Shown here piece after piece: positions 1 through 44,815 of a stretch of DNA of 64,000 bases. Origin of the DNA: Psammoneis japonica (Eukaryota). The position numbers and the translations under genes are program-made. The stretch spans positions 44,721-108,720 of the forward strand of contig QPGO01000094.1 in assembly GCA_008632985.1 (NCBI GenBank). Direction: 5' to 3'. Within the stretch, counting starts at the first letter, position 1. Each line of letters begins with the position of its first letter. The notes under the pieces are model-generated. The model was not told the origin of the DNA and did no database searches. It saw only the letters and a program-made list of their open reading frames with translations.

Positions 1-65
1 ATCAAAGAAGATCAAACAGATTTCTGCAAGGCATCAAACTAAGACAAGACACTCGCTCAGTTAAG

Positions 66-2543
66 ATGTGCCAGTGTGATTTCCCAGATGCAGCAAAATT
101 CGGCAGTTCTCTCATGGACAGTGATGCACCATCCTCGCCTGAAAAAGAGTTGTGTTGCAAGCTAGCTCTTGCTTTGTTCACATCATGTCGGACTGCCTCA
201 GACGTGCGACTGTTCGATCAAACCTGCTTACAATCATTCCGTCAAGCGGTGGAGAGAGAAATCGTCACTGAAGAAAATCTGAAATTCTTGCAAAATCTGC
301 AAGATGCAAAATCTAATTGTCTGCGATTAAAAAGCACATCAGATTTTCTTAAACGCACCACCCGTGAGCACACATCGGACGACAATGAATTTAGCACAAG
401 GTGCGAAAGCGACACCAAAGACGACATCGGAATGGCTTTGCAAGGACAAATGCTTGATGCTCTTCTAGATGAATTGGTGAACCATGAACACGAAGACGGG
501 ATAGAAGCGAATGATGAAGCAGCCGTGCCCACGAATTTAAGTGGCAAACAAACCAGACAGAAGGGAAGTCACCTTGCAGGACATCAGCACTTGGCACGCA
601 TGTGCATGACTTCTTCAGATCAAAACACTGTCATCAATTCGGTCCCTGTCGTAGAAACAATGGAGCCACCAGAAATTGAGGTTAATGAAGAAGACAATGA
701 AAACAGCATGCAAGCAGATGAAGAACCTGCACCTCAAATTAGGAAACGAGACACAGTTTGAGCATTGCTGACCAAGACTGGATGCATTCGACAATCTTTC
801 CAAGACATGACTAATTTGGAAGAAGCCGTTGATGTCCTTGAAGCTAACGGCTCAGCCAAAAGCTCAGTTGATTGGTCAAAAAAAGCCAAGCTAGACCCAC
901 ATCAAAGTCGTGCTTTTGAAGTCATGGCAGGAACTTTCATTTTGACGCACTGCAAAGACGCTCTGGGAGAACAAGCAAGTGGCAATGTAAGAGGAGGAAT
1001 TAGACACGAATTTAACAAAGAGTGCAGGAGATTAGCCAAGTTAGTTGAAGTGCGAGAACGAAGAGGCACACAGTTGGTTTGTTTCTTGCATGGAGCAGGA
1101 GGAAGTGGCAAATCCACTGTTGTCGATCTCATTGTTTTGTGCGCAAGAGAATGTTGCTCTTTAATTGAACGACCATTCACTGCACAAACAATTGCCGTCA
1201 CTGCCATGACCGGAGTTGCAGCGACAATTCTGAAAGGAGACACCATTCACAGAGTTGCCCATCCAAACAGGAAAAAAGAAATGACAGAAACACAAATGGA
1301 AAGCTGGAGTGACACTCGTCTGCTGATCATCGACGAAATGTCATTTGCTTGCAGAAGAGATTTAGAAAAATTACATGCTGATCTATCTGTCGTGAAATCC
1401 AATTTAGACAGGCCTCATGGGGGTGCAAACACAGTGTTTGCAGGGGACCTGAGACAACTCGAGCCAGTTGGACACGGAATGCACCCTCTGTGCAAGGAGA
1501 CCTGTGCCGAATTCCAGGAATGGGTGAACTGCTGTGTCCAGTTGCATGGGATGCACAGATTCAGTGAGGATCCAGAATGGGGCAGTTTGCTAAAACGATT
1601 TAGAGATGGCGAAGCGACTCTCGAAGATGTCGACAAAATCAATGAAAGAGTGGCAAGAAAGGGTCAACAACTGCCAGAGAACATCAAATGTGCATCACAC
1701 AGAAACAAAGAAAGAGACTCCATCAACACAGCCTTGTTTGAGGAAAGGACCAAGAGACTGCACCAAAGAGATGGAGAAGTCTTGGACTCTCTAGCCATTT
1801 TCAGTGACGATTTACAAGTGCGTGACGGAGCAAGACAGTGCAGGCCTTTCCCGGTGCACAAAACATTCTGGAAAAACTGTGGAGAGAGCGATGTGGAAAT
1901 GCAATCTGGCAGGCTTGATCCAGTGTTACGAACATGCAAGGGATGTAGAGTTATGATCCCGCACAACGAAAATGTGGCAAATGGCATTGCGAACGGAACA
2001 CAAGCAACTGCAGCAAAAGTCGTGCTGAAACCAGGAGAACATTCATCGCAAGTGGTCTTGGACTGTGGAACATCCATTCGAGGTGTCACAGCATCCCAGG
2101 TGGATCATGTAGAACTCAAGCACAGCAACAAAAGCATCGGTCCACCCACCTTTTCGCTCAAGCCTGAGTCTTCCACTTTCAAAGCCTGTTTAAAGGACCC
2201 AACCCAACAGATGACAGCTGAGGAAAAAGAGAAACACATGCTCGGACTGAAAGCAACCCAATTGCCATTCACAACAAACAATGCGACTGCAGGACACAAG
2301 CTTCAAGGAAGCGGTGTCGACAATGTGTTTGTGCACAGCTGGAGCCACACACAAAACTGGGCATGTGTCATGCTCTCCAGGGTTAAGACCAGAAATGGTC
2401 TGCATCTTCGGCAACCGCTGAAGAGAGATTTAAGTCTACACAGACTGCCGGACGGGTGTAACGCCCTGCTCCGGTTGATGGAAGGAAGAAGTGTCACATG
2501 CTTCACCAACGAACAGTGTGATGACATTTTGCAGTCCAATTGA
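66..2543 (+). pseudogene. PIF1-family (SF1B) DNA helicase, mutationally damaged
   Basis: ORFs 66-761 and 765-2543 share a frame and are split by one TGA (759-761, plausibly CGA->TGA). Motifs: Walker A GAGGSGKS, TAMTGVAA, GDTIH, Walker B LLIIDEMS, GDLRQLEPV, HKLQG and VMLSRV. No Tyr in 823 translated residues. Confidence 0.88.
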
Positions 2544-2607
2544 CAAACAGAACATTTTGATGCTGCACATGGGAATTGTTTCTACATTTTGGAAAATGTT
2601 CCAGGCT

Positions 2608-2640
2608 TTGTGTCGGGCTTGCAGGCGTGCCCGGCAACAA
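2608..2640 (+). other. Imperfect GC-rich hairpin, candidate Helitron 3' terminal palindrome
   Basis: ttgtgtcgggc...gcccggcaacaa arms with one G-T pair and one bulge. A canonical CTRR end is not found at the usual spacing. Confidence 0.45.
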
Positions 2641-2649
2641 CCGATAGAA

Positions 2650-3330
2650 AACAAAGGGTCTAATCTAATAAATCGGTGTTAGTACATTATTACAATGATA
2701 GACACACTCAGCAACCAGTGATGCACAACGTTAGGACAGTTCTCTTATCATCTACCATAGAACGATCACACCAGAATTATCAAAAAGGGGAAACCCACGT
2801 CTCTTCTTATAATATATACATACACGAATACGAAAATTAAATCGCCATTTTTTGATATAATATTAAAACATTAATATAGAATTACGTCGCACATTAATTA
2901 ATTGCGAACCCATCATTTAAGCGTGCGAATTTTTCAAAAATGATTGGTGGCAAGTAAAGATCAAAGCTCTAAAATTTGATGCTCGCGCGCATGGCAATCC
3001 AAACCAGCCCGGGTTCCACACCTCCTCACTTCGTGTCCAGAGTTCCTACCATAAAGGAGGAACCAATTACTTAGCTTGCGGAACCTCTATTTCGTGGATA
3101 TTAACGGATTACTTAGATTTTAAACTTATTCATGTATAAAGTTCTATTACGTAAATGTCATCTTAGAATTGATTATTCGTATAATCATGCGATGCCCCTA
3201 CAGTGTGTTTGGTTGATCTTTTCTCACACATGTGTTAGATCTAGATTATTTTACTGTACGTGAATTTGACGGCTTGCTTTGAGTGATGGATTTCTTCAGA
3301 CCGATCTTAGGGTTACGAGATCAAGGCAAG
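2650..3330. other. AT-rich non-coding island retaining TpA and CpG
   Basis: Rich in tata, taat and tacg words (e.g. tataatatatacatacacgaatacg). No ORFs. Lies between two TpA-depleted blocks. Confidence 0.7.
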
Positions 3331-6300
3331 ATGCTCTCTGCTCTAGAGCTGCTCTCTGCTGTAGAGCTGGCTAGAGCCAGAGTTAGCAGCAGAGAGTGGC
3401 ACTGTCTTTCAGAAGGTCGTGACAAAGCACCGTGGGCCTCAGTTGTTTGTTCAACCCCACAGGGCCGTTGTCAGCAAAGGGTGGAAACTGCGCACATGTT
3501 GATGCACTGGCATTGCTGGCCACCACCTCCAGAGTTGTTGGATCACTTGGCAGCACGTGCTGCTCTGGCACAAGCCATTTTTCTTTGTTTGGCACAAGCT
3601 GCACCTGGGTTCTCCAAAAAAGCATTGGGAGTCTTTGGTCGCTGGGTGCTGACTGGACATTTGTGTGATCTCCATCAACCTCCAAAGCTGCCTTGTTGGC
3701 GATGTGGGCTTTCACATTTGCTTCATCAGCACTGCTGCGGGAGCATTTTTCATGTGTGAGCTGAAAAGTTGAGATTGGTGTTTCCAATGACTGACATTGC
3801 AGCTGACCTTGCTGGCCCATCAAAAAAACAATGGACCATTGGAGAGTGCTTGGTGCACATGTGTGCACATGGTCTTGTCAGCTCAAAGCTGAAGTGGAGA
3901 AAGAATGCTGGGTGCCATGCTCTCAGACAATTGGCACCAGCCTGAGCTTGCAAGTCAAAGATCAAAGAGCATGAGCTGCCATGGTGGGTTAGCTGGGGTC
4001 AGGTGTGGCCCTGATTTAAAAAGCTCACATGGCAGACAAGTCTTTAAAAATGAAGTGGTGTTTGCCATTGGTGCCTCCACAGGAAAAGCAACCCCCAGCA
4101 GAGGCAAATTCTTTGTGTGGCTCAGGCAGCTTCTTCTCTTTTGAGTGCTCTTTCAAGGCAGCAGGGCTGCACAGCACATGTGTGGCCAGCCATGACAAGA
4201 AAAAACTCTGCCAACCAACTGCGCAACACATTTCATCTAGCTGCCAATGCATGTTTTCCAACAACCACATCAGAGATTGTGGTGCTCCTCAGAGAAAGCT
4301 TTCCTGTCATCTGCAACCCACCACTTCCAAAGCAAGCTTCTCATGCCAGGTTGTGTGCTTCCAAAGCCAATGATGGCTGACTTTTTGTCTGAATTTGGGG
4401 ACATGACACTCACACTGCCAAAATCACTGCCAAAAGACAAAAGAACTTTGCAAGCATTTTCAAAGTTTGCATCAATGTTGCTTTCAGCTGCCAAGAATTT
4501 GGCTGTGATTTGCTTTCACATCTGGCCATGCTCTGTGTGCAGTGCAGCACAAACCAAGCAAGCAAAGCAGCACTGACACAGTGGCCTGCTCACAATGTTT
4601 TCAATGGATGCTGTTGGTGTGGATTGTGCTGTCTTGTGCTTCCACACATGTGATCATTGGTCTTCTGCTGCAGACAAGATGGCGGCACTTGTGCTCAACA
4701 AGTTTGCCAACCTCAACAAGGGAGGTCTAGATCCAGGCAAATGCCTTCAGTGCAGATTTGTGAAGGACATTTGCTGGTGTGCACTTAACCTCTGAACCTG
4801 ACAGAGTGGTTGTGTTGGCACTAATTTCTTCAACAACATTGGCTCAATCTCTGTCATGCCATCCCATTTCAAGCTCTCAGATGTGGTGTTCAGCCTCATG
4901 CATGAGAACAATTTTTTGCTGCATGGCACACTTTTGGCAAACAGAGGCGCTCAGCCATGCATGTGCTTGTGGCTCCTGGGGTCTTCCAAGCTGCTGCTGC
5001 TCAGTTGTGTGGGACCGGATGCCAACCTTCTGGGTGCACTGCAACCCCAGATGGTCAGGCTTTCACTTTGTGAGCTGTGAAGTGCACATGCTTTTTGGCA
5101 ACTTGTTGGCTGATGTTCCCTGTGCTGTCTCCACCTGTTTTGATGCTGCTTTTCTTGAGAGAGCTGGGCTCATCATTGAGAGTTGTGATGAGCTGGACAA
5201 TGCTCAACAAATGCTTCACTCAGAAGAGCCCAAACACAAGCTTGCAAGCCCAGAGTGATTGAGACAGGGCCCATTGCAATTTGCTTTGTTGGTGGTCAAA
5301 AAGTGAAAATCACACCATGAGCCAGTTTGGTCGCCTCTGTTGCTCAACTTGCCTCCATGCAGCACATGTGGTTTGTGCTCCACTCCACCTTTTTGAACCA
5401 GCTGATTCTGTTTGCCAAACCCAGCCAGCACAAGAAAAACTCTCCAGCTGATTCATGATGTTCTTGATGCTGTTGGCCCAAGATTTGGCAAAGTCTTTTG
5501 GACAAAGTGCACACCTCACTCTGCCAAAAATTCAGCTCAATGCACTTGACAGGGTGCACTGGGAGTTCTTTGCTGCATTCTTGGAGTGGCCTCTGCAGCT
5601 CTGCAGCTGTTTGCTTGATGTGCCCAACTGCAGCATCTGTGACACACATGCTTTGAGACTCCTGGCTCTGTCAAGCCCAGCTTCAACAAACAGTGGTGTT
5701 CAGCAGAGAATGTGTTCATTTGAGTGACATGTCAAATCAGGCCAGCAGCTTCCAAGCATGCCCTCAACCACCCTCTCTTGTTGGCCTTGTCTTCTCAGCA
5801 CAACACAACAACCAGCTGTGGTGCCAGAATCTTTTCTCTTGATGCAGCAGGTCGTGAACTTGAGTGGGCTTTTGCAGATCGTCATGGAAGACAGCAATGC
5901 CAAAAACAGTGTCACAAATGTTGTGATTTGTTCCACTGAATGGCCAACTCTTGCTGCAAGAGCAAACAATTGTTTTTGTGCTGTGCTCTGCTCTGCACAA
6001 AACTTTTGGTCATTGTGTTTCCCCAGCAAGTGTTCCCAGAAGAAGAGAAGAGTGGCAGAACAGCTCAGCTTCTTGATCCTGCCCTGCCTCTTGACTGAAA
6101 AAAAGAAGGTGCATGGGTGCATCATGTCACGCTTGTCATTTGCCAGCTCTGGCACAATGCACACTTCCCAGTGCACCCATTTCAAACAACAGATCTTTTG
6201 AAAAATGCAGTTTGTCCAGTGCTTGAGAGGCTCTCTGGACAACCCCTTGTGCATTTTTTGGCAAAGCTTTGACATTGCAGCTTGCTGTGAGATGTGTGTG

Positions 6301-7179
6301 TGCTCCCTTGCTGTGCTGACAGAATCTTGTTGGCACTTGCAGCACCCTTGTGTTTGTTCTTCAAATGCATCAACTGGCCAGTTGAGCAAGATCACTCTGA
6401 AGCTCTTCCTCTGCAACAGGATGGTGTCTCACTGTGAACTGCTTTCAAACACAGAAGTCAGATCCATCAAGTGTGTCACAAGCTCTTTCTTGGATGCATT
6501 GCAGCAGTGAGCAAGCAACTTGAGATGGGTGTGCCAAAAGTGAGTGGTGCCCATGCCCACCACTGGCAGAGCACACTCTGCAAGAACAGCTGAGCAGCAG
6601 CAACCTCTGGCAGAATGCACTCTACAAGCCCAGCTGAGCAGCAGCAGCAGCAGCTGTTCTCACAAGCACAGAAAATGAGAAGCAACAAAAGCATGCTTGC
6701 TTGTGTGAAGCTTTTTGTCACCCAAGTGCTCTCAGGCCAAGCAGACTCTGCCATCCCCCACCTTTGAAACAAGAATGCAGGCACCAGCTTGCTTGGACCC
6801 TGGTGAGCAATTTTGACAATCTGGGTGATTTTGAATTTTTTGCTTCCACAACCCAACAGAGTTTTGTCAGAGAGTTGGGAGCCATTCCCTCCACTCCTCT
6901 GGGTGGCAGGTGGATGACTCACTCTCACCAGGTTGCACTTGACACTCCAGTGTCTGCCCCAATCTCTGCTGTCTTTGAACACAGACTTCAATCTCTCTGC
7001 CCTTTTGTGCAGGGAAGGGCATTGTTTGATGACCTGATTCTGTGTGCACCCAGAGAGATCCAGGGCACCACAAGAGTTTTGTCATGGCACTGGTGGCAGT
7101 GTGATGGATTTGTGACATCTTCCCAAAGAAACCTTTGGCTGAACCCTTGTGATGTGTGGAGCTGTTCAGGAACTTTGAC

Positions 7180-7490
7180 AGACCCAGACATGTTGAAGAA
7201 AAGATGTCATTGCTCCTGATGTGGAGGACGCGGCAACTCATTGAGTGCAAAGATGTGCCATCGCTGATCCCACCCATTTTGTTGTTCTCACTCTTTGGAG
7301 TGAATCATTTGGTTTGCATGATTGTTGAGTGGTGTCAAGAGGCACCTGATGTTTTGGCAGTTGTTGATTTTCCATTAATTCCCAGGCAAACCACAGCCAC
7401 AGCAGACTGCCAAGACAAGTGCAACCAGTTGCTCAGGAGAGGACCTCAAGGAAGGGATTCCCTTTACAAGGCATTGCCTTGCTGATTCAA
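7180..7490 (+). repeat. Dispersed repeat, copy 1 (copy 2 at ~12760-13080)
   Basis: Shared blocks include ttgaagaaaag, tgttctcactct-ttggagtgaatcatttggtt, gaggcacctg and gttgctcaggaga. Confidence 0.8.
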
Positions 7491-10400
7491 CATTCACACC
7501 AGAGAGTCATGGGTGCCAAGTTTGGTGCTCATCTGCTGGAAGACTGCTGACAACACCAAGATGTCAGAATGCCTGCACAATGAGTGGCAGAGGAGGTGGC
7601 AGATCAAGCTGTTGAGGCCAAGGATGTGGTCCCAGCAGAGGAGATGGAAGTCACAGGTTGCAACCACAAGGGTGACATGTCTTGTGCCAAGTGGTTCAAG
7701 AAGACCAGCAAGAAACTGGAGATTGAGAGGCAGAGCCATGCACAGATGTGAGAGGCAGAAAAGACAATGACCCATCAGTGGACAGCAACAACACATGAGT
7801 GTTGACACCAAAAAATCTGACAGATCAACCTGTTCCAGCCAAAGCAGAAGAAGCACTGCATGACCACCAAGAGAACAGAGGGGAGCATGAATGACCAAGC
7901 CAACACAGACATTGATTCCAAGGAGATTGTCCTTGACAATGGCTCTGGTGCCCTTGGCATGGCAGCAAGCTGGAAACTGGTGCACAATGTGTGACCAGTG
8001 AGGATCAAGATTGACCCATCAACCAATGCCCACACCCCAGATGAAGCCTGAAACAATGCCAGGATGGAGAGACATTGAGCTTGGGTCAGATGATGTGATG
8101 GCCAGTGACCTCAATTTAAAGGATGTGAAGAGCAAGCACTGCATGACTTGAGATGACGGAATTGCAGATGAGTTCCAACTGTTGGGCAAGAAAACTGGGG
8201 ACAAAAGCTGCAGTGTTCAAAGTTGACAACATTGGGCTGCACATGTTTGCACCAAGTTGAAAATTCTTCAACTGTGCCAAAGAGCTGCAAGAGCAAGAAG
8301 AGCACACGAGCATGCTGTTGAAGGACAAGAGGAGAGCCACCACCAAAAAGGAGCACAAGGACACATCCAGAGTGATCGTTCCCACTGCAGAACAAAACAC
8401 CAAGGGCTGCTCTAAGAGAAAGCAGCCAATGCCAAGAAAGCTTTCAGACTGCAGTGTGAGAGATTTTAAACTGTCATTTTCATCAAACCAGGTGAAGAAT
8501 CTGACCATTGCACCTGAAGACATTGACAGAATGGTTGGCCATGTGGGGACCACAGACAGACACACTAAAAGAAAGACCAAGCCTGCACACCCTGCCCATG
8601 AGAGAAATGCTCTGCATTGATGTCATGGAAGCATGTGGAGTCAAGACATTGTGTGCAACAGACAAGACAAGCAAGCACCAATCAAACATGAAGCCAAACA
8701 CCAAGAACTGCACCAATGCACACAAGGCATTGGACGTGGTGATCCTGCAACAGCGCATGACACCAACACATTTAAGATCAACTTCATCAAGAACAACCTT
8801 GAGTTCAAGGATGTGGTGTTGGCGGCCATTGTTGATGGCATGGACCCAGAGCCAATGGTCCATGAATGCCAACCACCATGTTCCTGAAGTGGAGAGGAGC
8901 ATCCAAACTGTTGAAGAGCAAACTCAGGCACCCGTGCACTGTTTGCCACACAAGACAACACTTGCAGCCCACACACTGTTGTGCAACAAAGGAACCTTGT
9001 TCACAACAAACATTTTGAATTCTCCTTTGGAAAATTTGTCCCATCCCATGCTGAGCCCAACCCATCAAACACTGTGGGTGCACATGGCATTAACTGCATC
9101 CACCTGCAACCACACTGCAACACACCAAAGGGCAGACACTGCACCAGATGAACTTGCACATGGGCAAGCTGCTCAATCCTTGCAGGTGTGCCACAATCCC
9201 CGCCCCAACCAACACGCGTGTGCATGTGTGTGTGTGTTTGAAAAAATTGCCATTGCCAAGGACATTGAAGAGCTCAAATGTGCAGGTGAATGTGGGGATG
9301 ACCTGCGTGATGCTGGTTGGACTGCAGGAGTGGACCACAAAGAAAGCAATGCCAAAAGTGACAATGAATGCAGAGAAAATGGTGATGAAACTAGAAGTGC
9401 AACAACCAATGACAAAAATTGTGAAGAAGAAGAAGAAGAAGAAGAAACTGAAGACTCTGGCAATGCATGCGAAGAAGCTCAAGACATCCCAGGCAGCAGA
9501 TGAAAGATCCAGCCCAGCTCAGCATCACAAGGATGATGAAGACTTTGATGAGCAAGATGAAGAACACAAAGAAGAGCAAGAAGAATACAAAAATGCATCC
9601 CATGATGGGAAAACAAACAAGCAGAACAATGCAAAGCAAAACAAACCAGAAGCAGAAGATCTTGTGCAGTGGTGGCACACCACCAGAAACACAAGACAAT
9701 GCAAAGAAAACCAAAAGCATGATTTGCAGGAGTGGCAGATGCCAAAAGAGAGAGACAAAGACAGTGTGAGCTAGAGTGCTGCCATCATTTGTGAACCAAT
9801 GTGAGTCCTAACCTTGAGAATGACATGGAGTGCAACACAGAAGCAGGGGTGGCAATGGCACAGTTCATGTGCAAGATCAATGACTGAGCACAGTCATGAA
9901 AGAGCATTTCCTTTGCCCAACAACAGCTGCCACATGAGGGTCTTAGAGGTTTTGGTCAACAAGGATGTGATGCCTCAGAAAAGGAGATTAGACAGCTCCA
10001 CAACCCAACAGAGCATGCTTTGCACCCACATCAGTTAAAGAAATGTCTCCGACAGAGAGGTTGAGGGCCATGGTTGCCTTGATGTTCCCAGTGGAGAAGC
10101 AAGGCAGTTGTGCAAAAGGATTGGTGGTTTGCAGTGGGAAACCAACCAGGGAATGGCTGGACAAAGACAAGTCAGCCAGTCTGATGGCATCACTGGAAGG
10201 AGTTGTGATGGCAGCCATGTCATTGACTGTGAAGAAGGGCATGGCATTGTGAGTGCAGACATGCCAAACATGTTCACTTGGATGCAGAGTGGGCATTGAC
10301 TCCAACCCATGTGGACCACATGTGGTCAGGAGAAGAGGAAGCAAGTCTTCTGCATCAAGGCATTGGAGCAACACACGGGATGCTTGTGGCAGCCCCGCCA

Positions 10401-11350
10401 TGGCACAAACAATTCCGCAAAGACTTGAAGAAGATTGGGTTTGAGTTCAACCCATGCAATCCTTGCATCACCAGTTGCACAGCAAATGGCAGCACAACAT
10501 CCAATTTGTGTGGATGACCTGCTGTTGAGCCACAAGAACACCCCAAGGTCAATGACCAATTCCTGAGCTGGCTCAACAAGACAAATGGGAGCTGCAGTGA
10601 AGTCATTGCTTGCCACTTGAGGGAAGAGGCATGACTGTCTGGGATGACCCCAGATTTCAGTGAGAAAAGCAAGGTGAAGATTGACATGACTGAATGTGCA
10701 CAGAAGGCAGTGTGCACAGAAGACAATCAACCAGCTCCCAGAGAAAATTAAGAGCACCAATGCTGCCATGACACCAGTGGCAGAGAACCCACTTGAGACA
10801 GGCTGTGCTGGATTGCCGACCAGCAGAGAACAGACATTCCATGCATGGGTGGCCAAAGGACTGTTCCTGTCTGAGAAAGGCTGCATCATGGACATGCACC
10901 CTGCAGCCACAGCATTGCGCATGAGAGTTGGACAACCCGCCAACAGGAGGGGCTGGGAGAAGCCAGTCCATTTCATCAAGCATCTGAACCAGACAAGGAA
11001 CAAAGCTGCTGCACTGAGCACAAAAGACATCCGTGTCATCACAAGTGGTGCACAGATGCATCATTCATGGTGCACCCGGGTTTAAAGAGCCACACCGGAG
11101 GTGCAACAATGATGGGAAACAGTGCGATGTCCAAGTGCCAGAAGCCAAATGCCCAAAGCAGCACTGAGGCCAACCCAGTTGGTGTTGAAGGTGCAATGGC
11201 CATGATCCTGTGGATCAAGTCATTCATGAAAAAACAGGGTCATCCAATCAACAGGAATGTCTGGCATCAGGACAACAAGAGCGCCACTCTGCTGGAGACA
11301 AATGGGTGCAAGAGCACAGGAAAACAATGACCAACAAGCCACTGCTGGGA
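7490..11350 (+). mobile_element. Degenerate Ty1/Copia (CoDi-like) retrotransposon remnant
   Basis: Motifs occur in Copia order: protease-like IVLDNGS (~7925-7950), integrase-like HVPEVERSIQTV (~8877-8915), RT VDDLLLSH (~10510-10533), and RNase H KSHTGG...SSTEA...QDNKSATLLETNG (11085-11310). Many stops and frameshifts. Confidence 0.75.
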
Positions 11351-12759
11351 ATGAAGTTTGTGACATCAGACAAGAATTCTGACACATGTGGGTGAAAGAA
11401 CTCTGTGACCCAGAAGATGTGTTGAGCTGTGTGGCTGAAGCAATCACAGTTGTTCATGTTGCCAGAACCATGATGTCAATTGCTGTTTCCACTGATCCTG
11501 ATGAAGATGATGTGATGCATCTCAAAGACCGGCTTGAGCTGAATGACACATTTGCATGACAGTGGCAGAGGAGCTGTTGGGACAGGTTCACAAAGTTGGA
11601 TGAACTGTTGCTGCTGAGAGAAAAAGAGATCAAGACTTCCAGAATGCACTGGAAGAACACAACGAATGGACACAATGTTGCAGTGAGAAACTGACGACAG
11701 ACCCCTGCATCCGTTGAGAGGCAATCAACACGCATCTGTTGACAATCAAACTCATGGAAGACTGGGCTGCAAGGAAGACTGGCACCCTCTAAGAGGACTT
11801 TGAGAAGAACAAGAAAAAATTTGAATGAACGTGGCATGAGCTGTGGACAGCAAGGCATGAGACAATGGGGCGCATGCACAACAAGTTGAGGCAATGCAGA
11901 TGGAACAAGTGATTTTGTGCCAGCACATGTTTGCCAGCCACTGCTGCGCCAATGATCTCCTCACTTGGCAATGGACAAGAAATGACAGCCATTGTCAAAC
12001 ACCATGCAAGAGTGGCACACAAGACTGAGGAACATTGGCAGATCCTTGGAACATGGGTTTGGGGACAGGGACACTCATGTCACAAGCTGGGATTTTGGCT
12101 GGGTGACTTGCACCTGAGAGAATGCACCGTGGACTCAGTCATGGGATCAATGGGCAACAAATTCTGATTTGCATTTAACACCAACAATGTGCTGTGTGTT
12201 GAATTTGGGGTGCCCCAATGTGGGTTGGACCACTGTGGAACATGCAGACCTCCAAGTGCACCACCAATTGGTCTCTGGAAGCCAAGAAGTGGTGATTCAG
12301 GTTGGTGCAAGGCAACAATGGAGTTGTCTTTGATGCTTTTGAAGTTAGCATGATTGTTCAAGCTTGCAGTTGTTGAAGCAAAGCCCCACAAGGAATGGCC
12401 TTGCCACAACCCAGAGTTCTTTGAATTGAGCTGCAGAATCATCAACAACTGGCTGATGGAAATGATTGGCAACACGCATCCACACAGCATTGCTGTGCAA
12501 GAGAAGATTCAATGAGCTCACACCAAGCATTTCATGGACAGGGTCATGACTGCATTTGATGATTTGCTCAGCCCACCACACATTTGCAGACCAAGTGGAC
12601 ATGACTGTGGAGGCATCAATGTGGCCAACACATTGAATGGACATGTTGTTAACATCCCACTGGGCAGTGCAGATCCAGAACATCCGGGTGAAGTTGGGCA
12701 TGGACAGATCATTGGTGCAAGTGGTGGGAGAGTGTTGGAACAAGTTGTGAGACAGGAAC

Positions 12760-13080
12760 TTTGAGACCCGGATGTCTTGAAGAAAAGAATTTTGTTGCTC
12801 CTGATGCAGAGGACATGGTGACTCATCAAGTGCAATGATGTGCTGTCACCAAATCCCATCTGTTTTGCTGTTCTCACTCTCTTTGGAGTGAATCATTTGG
12901 TTCACATGATTGTCAAGTGGCATCAAAAGGAGGCACCTGCAATCTTGGCAGTCATCATTGAGTTTCCATTGACACCTGGGCAAACACCACCGCCGACACA
13001 GACCACCAACGCAAGTGCAGCGAGTTGCTCAGGAGACCTCACAGGAGGATTCTCTTTGGGAGACATTGACTTGCTGGTTC
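12760..13080 (+). repeat. Dispersed repeat, copy 2 (copy 1 at ~7180-7490)
   Basis: Same colinear blocks as copy 1. Many differences are TG-versus-CA swaps. Confidence 0.8.
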
Positions 13081-13839
13081 AGCAGGAGCTCCACACTGGC
13101 AGATTGCACAGATGCTGTGTTTGGAAATCTCCTTTGTCAATGCAGAGCCAAAACCACCCTGTTGAGTGCACTTTCCTTTCTGCTGTGTCAGCAGTTGGTG
13201 CTTTTGCTTGCTGGAATTTTGTGGCATTGCGCCCAAGCTTGGCACCGCTCTTGTTTGCAACAACATGGCCCCACGGTCAATGTGATTCTGAATTTAAGTC
13301 CTTTCCTCCTGCCCTGGAGCTTTTTGTTGGTCAAGATGGAGAGAGCAACTTCCAAAAAGAGGCATCATTCAGCAAACATGGCATCTCCTGATGAGTGGGA
13401 AGTGGTTGACAAAGTTTGTCATGTGCAGTCAGTCATTGCTCAGCGCAAAGTTCAAAGACAGCCAATCTGTTTCCCAGCCCCCCCCACGCAGCGGAGTGGG
13501 AATTCTGCCCCTCTTGTGGGGACCGCATGGGTGGGTTGAAGTGACGAAATAATGTGCTCTTCGAGTTAAAGAGCAAGCACTGGCAGAGTAAGAAGGTCTT
13601 GGCATTTCCCGCCTTTTCGCGATCCGCACTCCAAGTGCCGCAACTCTTGAGAAGCATTGTTCCCTCGTCTTGCGCACAATACTGAGATGAGATCTAATGG
13701 CTCTTCAGTTCTGATTCTCCGTCGAGACAGAAGAAGTTTGACGTGATACAAGCTCTCTAGGGCCCTAACGATGATTCATACGTAGCTTTCGGGAGCAACT
13801 TGATCTGAAAAGTTTTTGATACAATAAACATTACATTAC

Positions 13840-33229: not shown

Positions 33230-33976
33230 AAAGTGAAAAGGAGCATCGCTGGAATTCATCACACCGACACCAGAGGAGACTCCTGACCTAGTCGAAGGAA
33301 AACAGAAAGAGTTTGAAAAAGAATTAACCGCATCCCGGCTAAAACTTGCGTTTCTTCGATGCGAAGTACGTATTCAATGTCGAGGCGGCGGTCGCTCGTT
33401 TCGTCCTGTACTGGGACAGGCGCATTGAATTGTTTGGAAAAGAGAAAGCCTTTCTACCACTTACACTCGATGGGGCACTAAAGAATGACCATGTTGCACT
33501 TGCCGAAGGTCGAGCTCTTGATCGTCTGACGGGCCACAAGGACAGGGACGGCAGAGCGATTCTCTTTGGAGAGTTCACAACCGGCGACAACGGCAAGTAC
33601 GAGCGAAGAAGCTTGGCGAGAGCCTTCTGGTACATGGTCCATGCGGCACTTGAAGACGAGGACTCGCAGAAGTGTGGGGTGGTGGGACTTTTCAATACTG
33701 TGCACAACTTATCTCAGTGGGACCGGTTGGCCACCAAGTCGATGGCATATTATTGTAGAGGCGTTTTTGTGTTGTTATGTGAAGACGACGAAACTGTTTC
33801 TCGGCCCAAAGTTAAGGAAGAGTCTTTATGTACACAAAGGAACGAACGAGAAAGTCATCGAAACACTTGCAACGTATGGCATCAGTAACGACGCTTTGCC
33901 CACCATGCGGGGTGGCAACCTTGTTTTGGACCATTCAAAGTGGCTCAACGAGAGACGCGAAACTCAAAAGAGGTGA
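33230..33976 (+). pseudogene. CRAL-TRIO/SEC14-like lipid-binding protein pseudogene, copy 1
   Basis: AFLRCE / FNVEAAVARFVLYWDRRIELFG / KDRDGRAIL / WYMVH / LPTMRGG are spread over shifted frames. Has an internal deletion relative to the copy at 57057-57763. Confidence 0.7.
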
Positions 33977-34199
33977 AGTTGACGAATGTTGCTGCCTTGG
34001 ACCGTATCGAGATTCGTCGCCGTCGACAGTGAAAAACACAGGAAGGCTACTTCGTCCGATGATCCTACTTTTTGAAGAGAACAGGGTCTAGAATATACCT
34101 TTTTTCTACGCTGATCAACACATTGGGGCGTGTGTTTTTCTTGGTATTGGTACGATGTCCTGAGCGCGTGCTGATATGTTCAAGTTATCAAAAGGTGTT

Positions 34200-35854: not shown

Positions 35855-37541
35855 CTATTCCACCTGCCCCTGAAGGATGGTGGAACAAATCTTGGCACGG
35901 CCAAAGTTCCCGGACGCACCTAGAATCTTGTCCTGGTCAAAGTGTCCTTCGCGGACATCATACCCCAACGACAAAAAGTAGGCATACATGCAGACGAATA
36001 CACCGCAATCAAATCCATTGTGCTGCTTGGGGATGTCACGACTCTCTACAATAGACCAGTCGGACGGGAGTTTCTCGTCATTGTGCTGGAGACGATGTTC
36101 CTGCTCGAGGAACTCCAACAACTTCTTGGCGTACGACTTGCATGGACATCCGCACGAATCGTACCCTGCGACTACGTGAGCTTCGAAATCAACAACCAAC
36201 AGAGCCCAGTGGACATTGCTTTTGTTGATTGGGACCAACAGGCGGTCATATTCAAACACCCCCTTGCCCGGCAGTTTCTTCAGTTGACGACGCACTTTGA
36301 TGTTCTTGACGGACCCGTCCTCTACAAGCTTTGGCAAAAAGTATGAGTTGACGAAGTGGCATTTCTTGGGAACCTCGGCACCGTGCTTTTTTGCACGCAT
36401 GGACAGCAGACGGAAAAAATCAGCAATGATGATGTCGTTGAGATATTCTCCGGCTTTCAAGGTGGCAAGGTCTTTCGCGCATACAAATGGGGCAACAAGA
36501 AGTGTTTCATCAGCAGCAGCTGCTGCTGAGTGTTGCAAATACTGGCGATACTCGTCGTCTGGGATGCCTGCATCCAACAACGCACCAAGTTCATTGGCAG
36601 TCGGGTCCGGATCCGGTTCCACTGCGGCGGGAGCTTCCTTGTCAACATCCTTCTTGCCCTCCACTGTGACGGGAGTGTCCCGCTTGCTCTCGAGGATTTT
36701 CAAACGAGCCCCAAGCTCGTCGACCGTTGACTCCAAGAAATCCAAATCAAGACGACTCAGAATCTCAGCGATTTTTTTATCCTGTGCATCGGCACGATCG
36801 TCAAGGGCCTGCAAGAGCATTGCCTGCTCATCAAGACTCGCCTGATGTCCTGTCGTAGTGTTCAACATCATTCTAATCATCTCTTCGTGCCGGTCCAAAC
36901 AGGCGGCATGGGTGGAAAGATTAGGCCGGCCGGTGCCTTTGCCAAAAACATTGGAGTACGCCATCAGAGCGTCCAGCAGTTTGTTCAGGTTCCAAGTGTG
37001 CGTCATCTTCTTTCCGACATCTGCACCAAACAATGGCAAACGTGTCAGTAATGTGGCAAATGTCTCAGCATACAAAAAAGGATGACACTTGTGTCACAAA
37101 AGTTTACATACCAAATTGTTTCGAAATCACAGAGTAAAAGAACTTTGACAAAGCCGTCTCGGCTGTGGGGGAAAGCTTGCCCTTGTTCTTGGACTTCTTT
37201 GCATGGAACTCTTTCAAAGTGCTAAGGAGCTCCTTATTTTCCGCAGAAACAACAGCCTTGAAGATGTGAAGCTTGGCTCGCTCTTGGTCGATGGGGCTGT
37301 CATTGGCCAAGGTCCACTTGCGCACTCCACCGTGTGCAAAGTAGACTTGCTTCGTTTCAGGGTCCACAGCATGGCCACACTTGAAGGTGGCGGGAAAATA
37401 ATCAACCTTATTTCCATTCTCATCCAACAGGGGGGCGGCAAAATAGGAATAGGCTGTCTGCGACGCCAGCTTCTTCTTGGGTAGGGCCCTATCTTTTTCA
37501 AACGGTCCTCGGCTTCCTTTTTCTGAGCCTCCTCACTTTCG
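35855..37541 (-). pseudogene. Ulp1/SENP-like (C48) protease gene, 3' part, disrupted by the Copia insertion
   Basis: YLNDIIIADF, VPINKSNVHWAL, YDS and QHNGFDCGVF catalytic motifs. GT-AG intron at ~37111-37021, frameshift near 37485. The frame continues beyond the element at 44821-44897. Confidence 0.8.
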
Positions 37542-37830
37542 AGTCACGAGTCAACAACCGAGTCTGATTCACGGATGACGCTCCCGGTCATGGATCTCTT
37601 CTTCCGGAAGAAATGTCCGTTGAGTCTTATAGCGATAGTAATCGGAGTGACACACACGACCGTTAGGTCATAATGTCATCTCCAATCCCTCGTGAGATCT
37701 TCTCACAATTCGTATCTTTAGCGTGTCTTATTGTCCCAAAACCCACTTCTTATCATCCTCTGTTGTATTGTACAACCTCAAGAGAGTCCTGAACTCTCCA
37801 TCCTACACAGTGTGTTGTTGTATCCCAAGT
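37542..37830 (+). repeat. 5' LTR (289 bp)
   Basis: Ungapped match to 44527-44815 with 10 mismatches. Confidence 0.96.
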
Positions 37831-37842
37831 GGTTATGACCCC
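37831..37842 (+). promoter_or_regulatory. Primer binding site, half-tRNA-Met type
   Basis: GGTTATGACCCC lies immediately after the LTR and resembles the GGTTATGGGCCC PBS of Drosophila copia. Confidence 0.65.
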
Positions 37843-38009
37843 AATCCACGCACCGGTGTCAACTCGCAACGGAGTTGCTGCCACTCGTTCGTCTCGTTAC
37901 AGACGACATCCCATCCAACGGCGATCTTCCGTGTCGCAATCCAACGGCGATCATCTATATCGCAATCCCTGCCTACTAATCGATCCTCTATGTCGAATCA
38001 TCCACAACC

Positions 38010-41000
38010 ATGTCCATGGATCCTGATGCCGTCAAGATGTTTGCTGAGGCCTTCGCCAAGATGCAAACCTCGACCAACCCTCCTACGATCCCCACGCCGC
38101 TTCGCGGCGGCATCCACCACTCTCATGGAGTGTATCTGGGCGGTTCGGCTCTGAACAACAAGTGCGAGCAGACCGACACCCGCACCCACCGTTTTGCCTC
38201 GCAACGTCGCCATCCGAAAGCTGTCGACTCTATCGAGCGATCTCTCAGAGATCAACTCGCCTCGGCAACCACATCCAAGTTCAACGGCCAGATTGAGTTA
38301 TCCAACGGTTCCAGTGCTGAACTGGACAAAGACCACTTCGTCAAGACCATTCAGGACTTAATCGAGTCGCACGGACAAGAAACTTTCTGCCATCTCAAGA
38401 AAGTCGACGGCAAGGTCGTGTGCCTTTTTGATCACCTTCACGCCTTCACTGTCAAAGACCTTGAGAAGGAATGTGAGACCCGTGTGGCGGCTGCAGGTGA
38501 CGAAGGCTACGATCAGCATGAAATCGATGACATCGGCTCATCACAACTCATCGTCAAGTCGCGCATCACCGAAACCTTCCGTGAAAAGATTGAAACCAAG
38601 TTTAATCACTTGAAGAACTACAAGGATCTTCCGGGGTCTGTCTTATTTATGATGGCTCTGGACACCTGCAACGCCAGTGCTCTGGTTGACGTCAAGGCCG
38701 CCAAGGAAAAGTTGAACGACTTAACTCTGGACAACTGCCCTGGCGAAGACTGCACCGAGCTTGCAACCGAAACTCTGCGCCTGCTCAAGATCATGCAGAC
38801 GGACCATGCGTCACCAGTTGAAACTGGGTCTGCTGTTTTATCTGGGGCATCAAAGACATCCTCCGAGTTTTTCAATCGTCAAGTTTTTGCCAAGCTCGAC
38901 TCCGTCAAGCGCTTGGAGCGCAAATGTCGCTTGCGTGACCCGGCAGAAGTCCCCAAGGATGCCGACCATGCGGATCTTGGACCTGTTGGCCTCATTGGCT
39001 GGATCACCAAGACCCATGGCGAACTCATTAGCGATGAAGATTGGCCTGCCTTAGCAGCCAAGCTCCCGGAATCCAACCTCGCCAAGGACCACTCGGAAAA
39101 GCATTGCTGCGGCTGTGGCAAGGTTGGGTGCACCAAACGCACGTGTCCCACCTGCAAGGAGCAATGCAAGAAGGACAAACAGGGCACGGCGGACAAGTCC
39201 AAGGATGACCCTCCGGATGTCCGGAAGACCAACCCTTCCAAGAAACCACCCAAGCCGGCCTGGCGTTTTGTTCACAAAGGTGCCACTGTCACCGACGAGA
39301 AAGGCACGACCTGGCACTGGTGCGACAAGTGTGTGAACAAGGAAACGGGCAAGAAGGGCATGTGTCAAGGCCACTCCTCCGCTCAACACACCGGGAAACC
39401 GTCTGTCAACACCGACACCGCCGCTGCGGCAAATTTATCTGCTGTGTCGGACCCTTCTTCGGGCATTCCTTTTGGTCCTCCCAAGCAGACGACGTCTCCG
39501 CCTACAGACGAACCCTCTGACCCTAACGAGCTGGTTTATTGCGGCATGTGGTGTGCACCAGTGGACGACTCTTTGAGTTCGACTCCAGTGACTACGTCCG
39601 TCTCGTTCACTCCTGCTCCATCGGCCGAGAGGGAGACTACCGTGGCCAAACCCGCTCCCATCTTGGTTGAAACGGTTGCCCCCGAAGACGCTGACGATTA
39701 CTCCGAGTGCTCCGACGCTCACTCCTCTTTTGACTCCCTACCGTCAGCTATCGAGCTATTTCCGGCCCACACCATGCACGAGATTCAAAATCCGGACGTG
39801 TTTTATGACACGATCGCAACTCACGTGGAAGGTCTGTCTGACGACGTGTTAGACGATCTCGTTTCCGGGGCAAGCATCCTACTTTTCGAAGACAGCTACG
39901 AGCACTTACCTCCAAGCACCCAGTATCGCGGTTTCGAATTTTACGATCCCGAACCCCAAGATGTTGATTGTGGCGTCGAGGAGGCAACGCCGAGCTCTCG
40001 TCTTGAGCTTTTCTGGAACTTCTTGAAGCTCCGAGTTTTCTGGCTGTTTGCTATGTTCTGGGAAACGGTACTACACATTTGCTGTGCGCCGATTCCTGTC
40101 TTACCTCGTCGTATACGCCGTAAGGCATTCATCCCAACCATTCACGGTTTCCCCTCTACCTGGATGGTGCTGACTGGAGCTATCATGGTCTGGGCGTCTG
40201 TTTTCAACGGTCAGCCTCCCACGTATCCATTCTCCAATGTCCCTTCTCGCTTCTCCAAAGCTAGCTCTCAGGTCTACTCGATCATTGAAGAACTAGACGA
40301 TAAGACAGTGTTAGATCCGGGCAGTTTGGTGGAATACAACAAGATCAAGGCGCGACAAGTGCTTACCGAATTTGTGGAGCGCGATCCGGACCATCATCTG
40401 AGCAAGAAATTCACGCAGCTCTGGGAGAACGACGTATGCTCTTCCCCAGGCCGCTGCATCCCTCCAGCTCTAGAAGACCTCGAGTCCTACTTCGACACCT
40501 ATGATTCAGAGGAAGCCCTCGACCCGCTCCCGACCGAGCCGAGCCACTACTTTGATGCGGTTGAGGAGCTCTCTCCGGACTATTTTCGTTTCGACGAGCT
40601 GTCCACCAAGTTTGGTTTCGTGGACACCACTCCATGGCAAGACCCTGTGAAGCTTCTCCAGGCAGCTACTGACGGAACCGAAGCCTATCCTACTCATACC
40701 TCTATGCAGGTATTGACGGGCCAACGCTCTTTAGCACAACTCGCCGCCGACCCGCAAGCTTTGCTGAGCCCAGCACATGAGCGCCACACCGTCACATGCG
40801 ACACTGGCGCATCCCTAGCCATTGCTTACGATGAAAATGACTTTGTCGGACCTCTGACGATCCCTGATGGCCCATTGAAGCTTGGGGGTCTAGCAAAGGG
40901 CTTAACCATCGCCGGCATCGGACCCGTCTCCTGGGTTTTCCACAACGAGGACGGCTCTGAGCTCGTCGTCAAGACGATGGCGCACCATGTGCCTCAGGCC

Positions 41001-44000
41001 GGACAACGTCTTCTATCCCCACAACGCCTCTACAGCAAGGAACATGGCGTGACAGGAAAACATGAGGGAGACGAGGACTCATTTCGAGTGCATGTTGATG
41101 GCGTCGGTTCGCTCAAGGTCGCGTGCGCGTCAAATCACTTGCCGGTTGCGTCTGTGACCAACGGGGTGGCACCCGCTCCTCAAGTCAATCTGTCTGTGTT
41201 GCACGAGGACAACCAGAACCTCACCACCGGTCAGAAGCTCCTTCAAGAATGGCACTTCAGGTTTGGTCACCTGAACATGCCACGCATCCAAGGCCTGCTT
41301 CGGGCCGAACCTTTTCTCCGACCCAAATTCAAGCATGCTTCGCGTTGCGACATTCCGCGGTGCGAGGTGTGCGAACATGCCAAAGGACATCGCCGAACCC
41401 TCAAGTCTGCCAAACATGCGGCTACTCCAGAGCGTGAGGGTGCTCTTCGAGCCGAGCATCTACGTCCAGGCCAAGCCGTCAGCGTGGATCACTTCGAATC
41501 CCGTCTCCTCGGCCGAACCTGCGACTCCTGCGGGAAGGCCTCGTCCCAGCAATACAAAGGAGGCTGCATTTTTGTGGATCATGCCTCCGGTTACCTGCAC
41601 ATTGAACACCAACTTGGTTTCTCTGCTGTGGAAACGGTGCGCGCGAAGCAAGCGTTTGAGAAGCACGCGATGGACCACGGAGTCATCATCCAAGAATTTC
41701 TTGCCGATTCTGGCGCTTTCAAGGCCAGTGCTTTTGTGCAACACATGCGACAGCACGAACAACGTCTACGTTTTTGCGGAACCAACGCCCACCATCAGAA
41801 CGGCGTCGCAGAACGCGGCATTCGCTCCGTCTCCAACATGGCGAGAGCGATGCTCCTCCACGCATCCATCCGTTGGAAGGGGGGCANNNNNNNNNNNNNN
41901 NNNNNNNNNNNNNNNNNNNNNNNNNNNNNNNNNNNNNNNNNNNNNNNNNNNNNNNNNNNNNNNNNNNNNNNNNNNNNNNNNNNNNNNNNNNNNNNNNNNN
42001 NNNNNNNNNNNNNNNNNNNNNNNNNNNNNNNNNNNNNNNNNNNNNNNNNNNNNNNNNNNNNNNNNNNNNNNNNNNNNNNNNNNNNNNNNNNNNNNNNNNN
42101 NNNNNNNNNNNNNNNNNNNNNNNNNNNNNNNNNNNNNNNNNNNNNNNNNNNNNNNNNNNNNNNNNNNNNNNNNNNNNNNNNNNNNNNNNNNNNNNNNNNN
42201 NNNNNNNNNNNNNNNNNNNNNNNNNNNNNNNNNNNNNNNNNNNNNNNNNNNNNNNNNNNNNNNNNNNNNNNNNNNNNNNNNNNNNNNNNNNNNNNNNNNN
42301 NNNNNNNNNNNNNNNNNNNNNNNNNNNNNNNNNNNNNNNNNNNNNNNNNNNNNNNNNNNNNNNNNNNNNNNNNNNNNNNNNNNNNNNNNNNNNNNNNNNN
42401 NNNNNNNNNNNNNNNNNNNNNNNNNNNNNNNNNNNNNNNNNNNNNNNNNNNNNNNNNNNNNNNNNNNNNNNNNNNNNNNNNNNNNNNNNNNNNNNNNNNN
42501 NNNNNNNNNNNNNNNNNNNNNNNNNNNNNNNNNNNNNNNNNNNNNNNNNNNNNNNNNNNNNNNNNNNNNNNNNNNNNNNNNNNNNNNNNNNNNNNNNNNN
42601 NNNNNNNNNNNNNNNNNNNNNNNNNNNNNNNNNNNNNNNNNNNNNNNNNNNNNNNNNNNNNNNNNNNNNNNNNNNNNNNNNNNNNNNNNNNNNNNNNNNN
42701 NNNNNNNNNNNNNNNNNNNNNNNNNNNNNNNNNNNNNNNNNNNNNNNNNNNNNNNNNNNNNNNNNNNNNNNNNNNNNNNNNNNNNNNNNNNNNNNNNNNN
42801 NNNNNNAAAAGCAAAAAGATCCCGATGTGCCTTCTTCACACGAGGCCATGCGCAGCGATGAATCCGAAGAGTGGGTCAAGGCCATGAAAATCGAAGTTGA
42901 CGCGCTGCTCCACCGACGTGCATGGGAAATGGTGCCAAGAACGGCAGATGTGAATGCACCACCCGGCACATGGGCTTTCAAACTCAAACGACTCCCGGAT
43001 GGTGCGCCCTTGAAGTACAAGGCACGACATTGTGTTCGCGGCGATTTGCAGAAACACGGGATCGATTTTTTCGAGACCTGCGCGCCGGCAGTGCAATGGT
43101 CGTCCATGCGCCTTCTCCTCACCACGGTGCTCAAGGAAGGTTGGACTACACGTCAAGTGGACTGTGCCACAGCCTTCTGCCAAGCTGACATCAAGGAGAA
43201 GGTCCATGTAGAGCCTCCAAAGGGTTTCCAACCAAAATCGGGCGCCGACCTGGTGCAAAATTATTGAAAGGCCCACACGGCCTACGCCAGTCTCCCAAGT
43301 GCTTCTGTGAAAAGCTGAGGGACGGATTGCTCGAAAGAGGATGGATTCAATCCGCCATTGACCCTTGTCTTTATTTCAAAAAGGGTGTGCCATGTGTGGC
43401 ACATGTTGACGATGCCGTGTTCGCCGGCGCATCGGCCCAAGCCTTGGAAGCAGAGATTGCCAAGTTGGGCATTTCTGACGATGAGCAACGCCATGTCTTT
43501 GATCTACGTGATGAAGGCGAAGTCGGCAACTTTCTAGGGATCAAGATTCAAAAGCTCGAAGACGGCCGATTCCTCCTGACCCAACCCGGCCCAATTGAGA
43601 AAGTTCTCCGCACCGCACAGATGACTGAGTGCAACGGCGCACCTGCTCCTGCCTTGCCTGCTCCTGCTGGCAGCGATGCCGACGGGCCACCGTTCGAAGA
43701 GCCTTATGACTGCCGTTCCGTGGTCGGCATGCTGATGTGTCTAGCGTCCAACAGCCGCCCGGACATTGCTTGCGCGACCCATCAAGTCGCACGGTTCTCC
43801 TGCGCACCCAAGGCCTCCCACGCTGCGGCTGTCAAGCGCATTCTTCGTCACCTGAAGGATGCGGCCGACAAAGGACTTATCCTAACTCCAACCGCCGATC
43901 AACGACTCGACTGCTATGTTGATGCTGATTTCGCGGGACTCTTCAGTGTTGAAGATGGACAAGATCCCACGTCTGTCAAGTCACGTGCGGGACATGTCAT

Positions 44001-44490: not shown

Positions 44491-44513
44491 CTGACAGTTC
44501 TCCTTCTCTTTTC

Positions 44514-44526
44514 GGTTGAGAGGGAG
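44514..44526 (+). promoter_or_regulatory. Polypurine tract
   Basis: ggttgagagggag directly before the 3' LTR. Confidence 0.8.
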
Positions 44527-44815
44527 AGTCACGAGTCAACAACCGAGTCTGATTCACGGATGACGCTCCCGGTCATGGATCTCTTCTTCCGGAAGAAATG
44601 TCCGTTGAGTCTTACAGCGACAGCAATCGGAGTGACACACACGACCGTTGGGTCATGATGTCATCTCCAATCCCTCGTGAGATCTTCTCACAATTCGTAT
44701 CTTTAGCGCATCTTATTGTCCCAAAACCCACTTCTTATCATCCTCTGTTGTATTGTACAACCTCAAGAGAGTCCTGAACTCTCCATCCTACACAGTGCAT
44801 TGTTGTGTCCCAAGT
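44527..44815 (+). repeat. 3' LTR (289 bp)
   Basis: Ungapped match to 37542-37830, followed by the TSD TTTCG. Confidence 0.96.

Follow-up and report, generated by a model that had tools for sequence, protein, structure and literature searches.

Organization of the Window

The subject of this analysis is a 64,000-nucleotide stretch of the genome of the diatom Psammoneis japonica (C91:44721-108720, hereafter the window), in which transposon DNA has lost TA dinucleotides (TpA sites) through a hypermutation whose flank preferences could be measured. All coordinates given below are positions in the window, and the genome searched comprises 91 Mb. The window opens with a Helitron-like element of the family Hel1, of which the 3′ part is present (1-3068, plus strand) and whose boundary at 3068 is marked by copies on other contigs that are 94-96% identical and stop there. 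This part is partly TA-eroded, with a ratio of observed to expected (O/E) TA of 0.23-0.25 across 1-2000 and less editing in its last ~450 bases, and it carries an open reading frame (ORF) of 593 amino acids for a PIF1-like helicase (762-2543, plus strand, with a Pfam PIF1 match). The Helitron end and the adjoining spacer form a non-eroded, TA-retaining zone (2620-3384), with 61 TA and all 16 flanking contexts represented in 2620-3300 and TA positions continuing to 3384.

This zone is followed by a deeply eroded block (3385-13549) in which 30 TA remain, 27 of them as YTAR (Y, pyrimidine; R, purine). Within 4001-13000, the O/E per kb is 0.00-0.11 for TA and 0.02-0.23 for CG; both dinucleotides are depleted in eroded DNA and TG/CA are twofold up. 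Contigs of run X1, possibly from the source sample, span the block at the depth of a single copy and differ little from it; the block is therefore no product of assembly. Comparison of 1-13550 with these contigs also revealed about ten indels of 1-3 bases, probably long-read assembly errors, which have no material effect on TA counts. An old dispersed repeat (8000-11500, plus strand) lies within the block and has many relatives at 65-72% identity, with 120 matching pieces in the genome. Near 10505, it contains a CVDDLL stretch resembling what we take to be the reverse transcriptase motif of Copia elements with a Tyr-to-Cys change; Pfam and tblastn searches gave no support for a Copia reverse transcriptase at this stretch and no name for the 3400-13400 block. 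A degenerate direct repeat has its first copy at 7050-7600 (plus strand) and its partner at 12640-13200, the two sharing ~78% column identity and differing by many TG/CA swaps.

The gene region begins at ~13.8 kb. A young Copia-type element on the plus strand consists of a 5′ long terminal repeat (LTR; 37541-37830, 42 matches in the genome), an internal region (37831-44525) with Pfam gag_pre-integrase and RVT_2 domains, and a 3′ LTR (44526-44815) with 10 differences to the 5′ LTR. The internal region, which served as reference for the 21-copy signature described below, shows editing at 34% of the 152 TA sites scored in it and loss of CpG at 6 of 418 sites. A second deeply eroded block (61900-64000) contains an old inverted relative of this element (66.5% identity). 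In addition, a TA-intact tandem array is present at 59112-59681, with units of ~177 bases that each comprise two alternating sub-units of 84-93 bases.

Surviving TA Dinucleotides in Eroded DNA

According to the original prediction, which was made from the letters of the window alone, TAY is edited within 1-13550 and the leftover TA is mostly YTAR. The latter part agrees well with the counts: in 3400-13400, 27 of the 30 survivors are YTAR, 2 are mixed (YTAY on one strand and RTAR on the other) and 1 is RTAY, with the pyrimidine-purine (YpR) slots of the same block distributed as 606 YTAR, 1213 mixed and 611 RTAY, so that 25% YTAR would be expected (binomial p 9e-14). The Helitron part (1-2620) has 27 YTAR and 14 mixed sites among 41 TA, with no RTAY (p 3e-8), and six of the seven TA surviving in 61900-64000 are YTAR. 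Over the full range of 1-13550, YTAR accounts for just 76 of 138 TA, because ~2620-3384 is non-eroded. The bias is opposite in the genes of 14000-36000 (YTAR 139/821, 17%), and YTAR is the rarest class, as in genes, in 30 metagenome relatives of the Helitron that are mostly unedited (751/3982, 19%); therefore, the starting composition does not explain its survival.

Direction of Change and LTR Pairs

The direction of change can be read from the PIF1-like ORF, whose protein has no Tyr among its 593 residues. At 14 of 14 conserved Tyr columns, defined as Tyr in at least half of 94 aligned PIF1 relatives, the protein of the window has either Cys (9) or His (5). Since Tyr is encoded by TAY, the change has run from TA to TG or CA (TAY to TGY or CAY). 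Marked loss of Tyr with gain of Cys/His was also observed in 6 of the 94 relatives (P0138, P0143, P0154, P0180, P0194 and P0215). PIF1-related metagenome loci number 80; they include one that is TA-erased throughout (L095; TA O/E 0.02, 65% DNA identity to Hel1, with 7 TA kept as 2 YTAR, 5 mixed and 0 RTAY) and one partly (L119; all 4 TA kept in its erased part are YTAR), these survivors together being too few for a comparison of profiles. A scan of metagenomes using the edited PIF1 protein as query gave no matches. Judging from the sequences of these relatives, the mutator is probably not confined to the P. japonica genome.

Between the two LTRs of the Copia-type element, all 10 differences lie at inferred TA and none at CpG. 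The 8 TAY and 2 TAR changes that had been counted in the original prediction are indeed there, but this pair lies outside 1-13550 and, with 19 TAY and 13 TAR strand-sites available, its ratio is not significant alone (p 0.16). When 14 LTR pairs of the Copia family were considered, 113 of 129 differences were found at TA, including 86 TAY and 27 TAR (p 1.4e-4).

Measured Rates and Flank Preferences

Substitutions were scored in alignments of 56 copies from three families (21 Copia, 15 Hel1 and, from a second Helitron family, 20 Hel2 copies) with 774 TA sites, by fitting competing per-strand rates at each TA site with one term per copy; scoring left out masked stretches and any column represented by too few copies. 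Three of the 18 loci from the Hel1 search (L045-L047, 75-79% identity) were excluded from this young-copy fit and used as old copies. The ratio of the A-to-G hazard at TAY to that at TAR was 2.56, 3.68 and 2.55 in the three families, which bears out the predicted trinucleotide preference and rejects equality of all 16 NTAN contexts. For RTAY, YTAY, RTAR and YTAR, the rates were 1.36, 0.64, 0.38 and 0.26 in Copia copies, 1.30, 0.90, 0.37 and 0.20 in Hel1 copies, and 1.50, 1.04, 0.54 and 0.38 in Hel2 copies; the order is the same in all three families and RTAY exceeds YTAR about 4-6-fold per strand. Accordingly ordered retention was seen when single cells of the alignments were counted, TA being kept in 6-10% of RTAY, 21-38% of mixed and 47-67% of YTAR cells.

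A comparison within single dinucleotides, which is independent of exposure and composition, gave the same result: of 371 sites with a decided outcome, 288 were edited more often on the TAY than on the TAR strand (84/115, 117/140 and 87/116), and the within-site ratio of YTAY to RTAR events was 1.66 (1.36-2.11), 2.44 (2.06-2.91) and 1.92 (1.59-2.41) by site bootstrap. When TA sites edited in every copy were removed, the TAY/TAR ratio was still 2.5 (1.9-3.3; 153 sites), and saturated sites are therefore not the source of the preference.

The wider context was resolved with hexamer fits to the 413 of 774 sites that have invariant flanks, the 361 variable-flank sites being dropped. At position +1, the effects were 2.24 for C, 1.95 for T, 0.53 for G and 0.43 for A (~4-fold pyrimidine over purine), and at position -2 they were 1.56 for A, 1.36 for G, 0.73 for C and 0.65 for T (~2-fold purine over pyrimidine); T at -3 and A at +2 slowed editing to 0.50 and 0.52, respectively. 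Positions -3 and +2, as well as -2 and +1, mirror each other across the TpA dyad, giving a near-palindromic profile, and much of it should therefore be a property of the duplex, to which a strand-specific effect at +1 is added. The coldest 3′ contexts are TAAA (0.07) and TAGA (0.16). TA is kept in 97% of cells with TARA on both strands and in 4% of those with TAY not followed by A on both, so that TY-TA-RA is nearly immune. CpG abutting TpA slows editing (CGTA ×0.20, 0.08-0.33; TACG ×0.53, 0.28-0.84; 28 sites, mostly in Copia), and no clear protection was found for CpG at least one base away. A profile of RTAY type was also looked for in CpG loss, with a weak result that was inconsistent between families. 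The predicted target of 5′-TAY thus has to be modified: TAY is favoured, but 2334 of 8097 edits (29%) fall at TAR, and positions -3, -2 and +2 each contribute ~2-fold, i.e., TAY is a preference and not the target.

The rates measured in young copies can be compared with what is left in old ones. In 20 old copies of the 8000-11500 repeat, which were fetched from among many matches and picked by homology, YTAR makes up 119 of 189 survivors (63% vs. 23% expected, p 4e-32) and TARA is carried by 154 of the 189; the 90% share of the 3400-13400 block sits at the high end by comparison. Ranking ten hexamer classes by their survival in young copies gives a good prediction of survivor frequency in these old copies (Spearman 0.95), and mixed sites with TARA (56/2128) outlast YTAR sites without it (21/1789). 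In four older relatives aligned to the young families, two of which look like mutual duplicates, TA is kept at 14 of 79 YTAR, 4 of 157 mixed and 1 of 88 RTAY sites. Old copies retain mostly YTAR, and above all TY-TA-RA (TTTAAA, TCTAGA, TCTAAA), presumably because survival is exponential in exposure and the rates differ 2.5-4-fold.

Specificity, Strands and Distribution along Elements

Outside TA, A-to-G singletons are rare in the alignments of the three families (AA 51/27355, CA 49/29009, GA 26/25153) and neither YA- nor WA-shaped (W, A or T). The TA hazard is 0.58-0.76 per strand, and AA, CA and GA are >300-fold lower. At TA sites, only 21 of 11358 cells have a state other than TA, TG, CA or CG. 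Both TG and CA are found in every copy, which means that both strands are edited, and the share of neighbouring edits on the same strand equals the permutation null in 15 of 15 family-by-distance bins (2-1000 bases, |z| ≤ 1.8), i.e., no strand coordination was detected over these distances. Copies mutate independently (concordance above 0.8 in 3 of 479 pairs), and the sense-strand excess (1.10, 0.97 and 1.18 in the three families) is weak and indecisive for naming the edited base.

In most copies, 57-85% of TA sites are edited, vs. a CpG loss of mostly 1-19%. Both processes are lower at LTRs and element ends: RTAY is edited at 37-63% in the two LTRs (37541-37830 and 44526-44815) and in the Helitron end (2620-3068), vs. 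90-100% inside. Element ends are thus partly shielded, and the joint drop of TA editing and CpG loss would fit a shared silenced domain. Host genes are spared, with a TA O/E of ~0.45-0.75 in gene regions vs. 0.00-0.25 in elements. A diverged duplicate within the window (33461-34108 and 57054-57763; 84% over 711 bases) has an ordinary spectrum of differences and 19 common intact TA, which suggests for this one case that duplication alone was no trigger of the mutator.

Candidate Enzymes in the Genome

The genome contains several genes of the cytidine deaminase (CDA) fold, which from their motifs we take to be dCMP-deaminase-like, TadA-like, ADAT2-like, RibD-like and two others. Deaminase searches also detected two genes with an A_deamin domain of the ADAT1/ADAR type, one at L088:503-2216 (C79) and the other at L087 (C40), with no double-stranded RNA-binding domain detected in the exons seen of either. 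The C79 gene has relatives across diatoms, and its presence therefore does not single it out. At L025:313-1785 (minus strand), a CDA-fold deaminase domain is in frame with DIOX_N and 2OG-Fe(II) oxygenase domains.

With regard to repair, no match to glycosylases of the AAG/MPG family (PF02245) was found in the genome, controls being matched in 4 of 14. Searches for Tet/JBP and for MT-A70 were likewise empty, and since their controls went unmatched, both are uninformative. Y-family polymerase domains are present at 5 loci. The C5-methylase domain has 27 matches, one of which adjoins a weak chromo-domain ORF. Four C5-methylase copies (L078, at C301:34166-37723; L079; L080; and L084, in C297), presumably DNMT4-like from their motif, are located in TA-erased DNA (O/E 0.07-0.11) and some have stops; these methyltransferase copies were themselves struck and are perhaps carried by a mobile element.

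Comparison with Known Hypermutation Systems

TpA hypermutation is already in print for the alga Bigelowiella natans, in which integrated DNA of NCLDV (nucleocytoplasmic large DNA viruses) as well as of virophages is affected; the process is ongoing, raises the mutation rate ~1000-fold and is active in some lines only (Mettrop et al., bioRxiv 10.64898/2026.01.13.699255). Both systems show T/A-to-C/G transitions confined to TpA, on both strands, in foreign or mobile DNA with genes spared, and a deaminase has been proposed for B. natans too. Unlike B. natans, the present case concerns a diatom and ordinary transposons (Copia, Helitron), is near saturation and has a measured hexamer rate profile. 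The main text of the preprint contains none of the words “trinucleotide”, “context” or “diatom” and no flank analysis, the supplements, including Table S2, lying outside this statement. The hexamer fingerprint, which is a partial match to TadA, is thus what is added here. Searches of the literature, with most subscription papers outside them, found no report that joins diatoms, TpA and transposon hypermutation, and none of a naturally occurring double-stranded DNA adenosine deaminase; the parts covered of PMC10953296 and PMC9973308 hold nothing on editor sequence context.

Repeat-induced point mutation (RIP) of ascomycetes, which involves RID/DNMT4 and DIM-2, is set off by duplication as such, acts in the sexual cycle and is RID-dependent. 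It resembles the present process in affecting repeat-rich DNA after insertion, at one dinucleotide and on both strands, and genes of the DNA methyltransferase (DNMT) family are present in P. japonica. Unlike RIP, the polarity is opposite (TpA to CpA vs. C:G to T:A at CpA), CA/TG are enriched and no strand-coordinated tracts are found.

Proposed Mechanism and Rival Explanations

Our preferred reading, held tentatively and with a little less than even confidence, is a host genome-defence mutator, i.e., a heterochromatin-guided enzyme that acts distributively on duplex TpA and is probably an adenine deaminase. The mutator would be guided to silenced transposon DNA and convert TpA to TpG or CpA, reading the TpA dyad almost absolutely and editing sites singly, whichever the strand, in the course of many cell divisions. 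A-to-inosine deamination is the most economical chemistry for this conversion; most likely, A would become inosine in duplex, or briefly opened, DNA and then be copied as G. The hexamer would set the rate, with a 3′ pyrimidine and a 5′ purine speeding the reaction, T at -3 and A at +2 slowing it and an abutting CpG, perhaps through its methylation, slowing it further. The original prediction had taken the flank bias as a sign of an enzyme; an enzyme is indeed likely, but mainly from the >300-fold strictness for TpA and not from that bias.

Several observations weigh against this proposal. A and its paired T are interchangeable in the data, which are equally readable on the T strand, the flank gradient could stem from how the duplex stacks or opens instead of from a protein pocket, and strand non-coordination excludes bursts but not rare hits on transient single strands. 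Off-motif A-to-G changes also favour a 3′ pyrimidine (84/33003 vs. 42/48514, 2.9-fold), a bias compatible with leakage of the proposed enzyme as well as with DNA physics. At the level of copies, TA editing and CpG loss show no significant correlation (p 0.10, 0.84 and 0.16). Class-level rates extended 4-6 times longer give 77-99% YTAR, but extrapolation at the level of sites gives only 36-72% at 5% survival, a span that includes the 63% of the old copies and lies below the 90% of the 3400-13400 block; in the TA-erased relative L095, YTAR is just two of seven survivors. Deaminase searches of the genome, with APOBEC-like, OTT1508 and DddA-like families outside them, yielded no standout, the candidates had no DNA- or chromatin-binding domain in the parts examined, and Endonuclease V is encoded in the genome.

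A TadA/ADAT2-type deaminase acting on transiently single-stranded or hairpin transposon DNA would account for the T-A-Y core, and the genome encodes ADAT2-like and TadA-like proteins; moreover, ADAT2 was proposed for B. natans (Mettrop et al., bioRxiv 10.64898/2026.01.13.699255). TadA itself (on tRNA-Arg2, and in A-to-I editing of mRNA) and the editors ABE8e and ABE8.20m share the A-to-G outcome, and the preference of TadA-derived editors is for T on the 5′ and C on the 3′ side, with A on the 3′ side disfavoured (PMC8989541). The analogy to TadA that had been drawn from the window holds for this core and fails beyond it: natural TadA needs TACG, with the consensus YTACGAA (PMC12255301), whereas TACG is slowed here (×0.53) and among the YTAC classes YTACG is edited least (at this A, in 31% of cells vs. 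41-47%), and a preceding T adds only 25% in ABE8e and 52% in ABE8.20m (PMC8989541), as against >300-fold here. CA is edited no more than AA, with CA, AA and GA at 1-2e-3 vs. ~0.6 for TA, and the weak sense-strand excess and the near-palindromic 5′ flank effect also make this explanation unlikely. We also doubt, to much the same extent, that the modified base is T, in which case an enzyme, perhaps a diverged DNMT4/RID-like protein or another dyad reader, would alter thymine in 5′-RTA-3′ so that it pairs with G, as occurs for instance after O4-alkylation or oxidation. All sequence data fit the T strand equally well, the strictness for the dyad resembles that of CpG readers, TpA to CpA is the exact reverse of the CpA-to-TpA change of RIP, and the 27 C5-methylase matches include the one beside the weak chromo-domain ORF. 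We know of no eukaryotic enzyme that makes such a thymine change, and the Tet/JBP search was empty, its controls being unmatched. DNMT4 of diatoms, for which no function is known, falls in one group with RID, but among the transcriptomes surveyed it was found in diatoms only (PMC9998398), yet B. natans has the same TpA change.

Error-prone gap filling by a pol-eta-like polymerase (WA to WG) in the course of T:G mismatch repair at methylated CpG is suggested by the A-to-G outcome and the TA hot spot of the WA signature known from somatic hypermutation, by the five Y-family polymerase loci and by the covariation of TA and CpG loss along elements. Pol eta repair tracts are strand-coordinated clusters, and here no such tracts exist even within 10 bases; TA editing far exceeds CpG loss in most copies, an abutting CpG protects TA rather than exposing it, and the 21 of 11358 exceptional cells leave almost no room for transversions. 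The WA target includes AA (PMC7884765), which lies at background here, >300-fold below TA, and this very improbable explanation is largely refuted. Editing of retrotransposon transcripts at the RNA level in the manner of ADAR, with the changes then fixed through reverse transcription, could draw on the two A_deamin-domain genes, one of them conserved across diatoms. As the two LTRs of single insertions differ from each other at TA, the changes arose after insertion; Helitron-like DNA elements are equally affected, both strands are edited in every copy, and ADAR favours 3′ G, with a 5′UAG hot spot (PMC10661471), the opposite of TAY. This route has hardly any probability left and is refuted at the RNA level only; an enzyme of ADAR type with R-loop DNA as its substrate is outside this refutation. 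A compositional or assembly artefact (YTAR-rich ancestors or consensus error) might be suspected from the ~ten short indels relative to run X1, but the contigs of that run reproduce the eroded block, no TA class is rarer than YTAR in genes and unedited relatives, and the bias was measured directly from substitutions, by which this explanation is refuted with practical certainty.

Implications

Since LTR divergence in this genome is mostly the output of the mutator, the dating of repeats in diatoms would be affected. The fingerprint also provides a test for enzymes: a candidate expressed in a reporter must give strict TpA specificity, RTAY ~4-6-fold above YTAR, sparing of TY-TA-RA, CGTA at ×0.2 and uncoordinated strands. 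Pol eta and RNA editing are off the shortlist by this measure, and the likeness to TadA is shallow. The mutations of B. natans can be compared with the same profile, which would tell whether the two lineages share one machine. More broadly, and with greater reserve than for the mutator itself, it is conceivable that algae (diatoms, and perhaps others) possess a natural editor of a kind not yet described, which would read the duplex TpA dyad as methyltransferases read CpG, be steered to transposons and blocked by an abutting methyl-CpG, and change A:T to G:C, either as a deaminase of adenine in duplex DNA or as a writer on the thymine side. If true, a strict natural editor of adenine in duplex DNA would matter for the evolution of transposons and also as something from which base editors could be developed.

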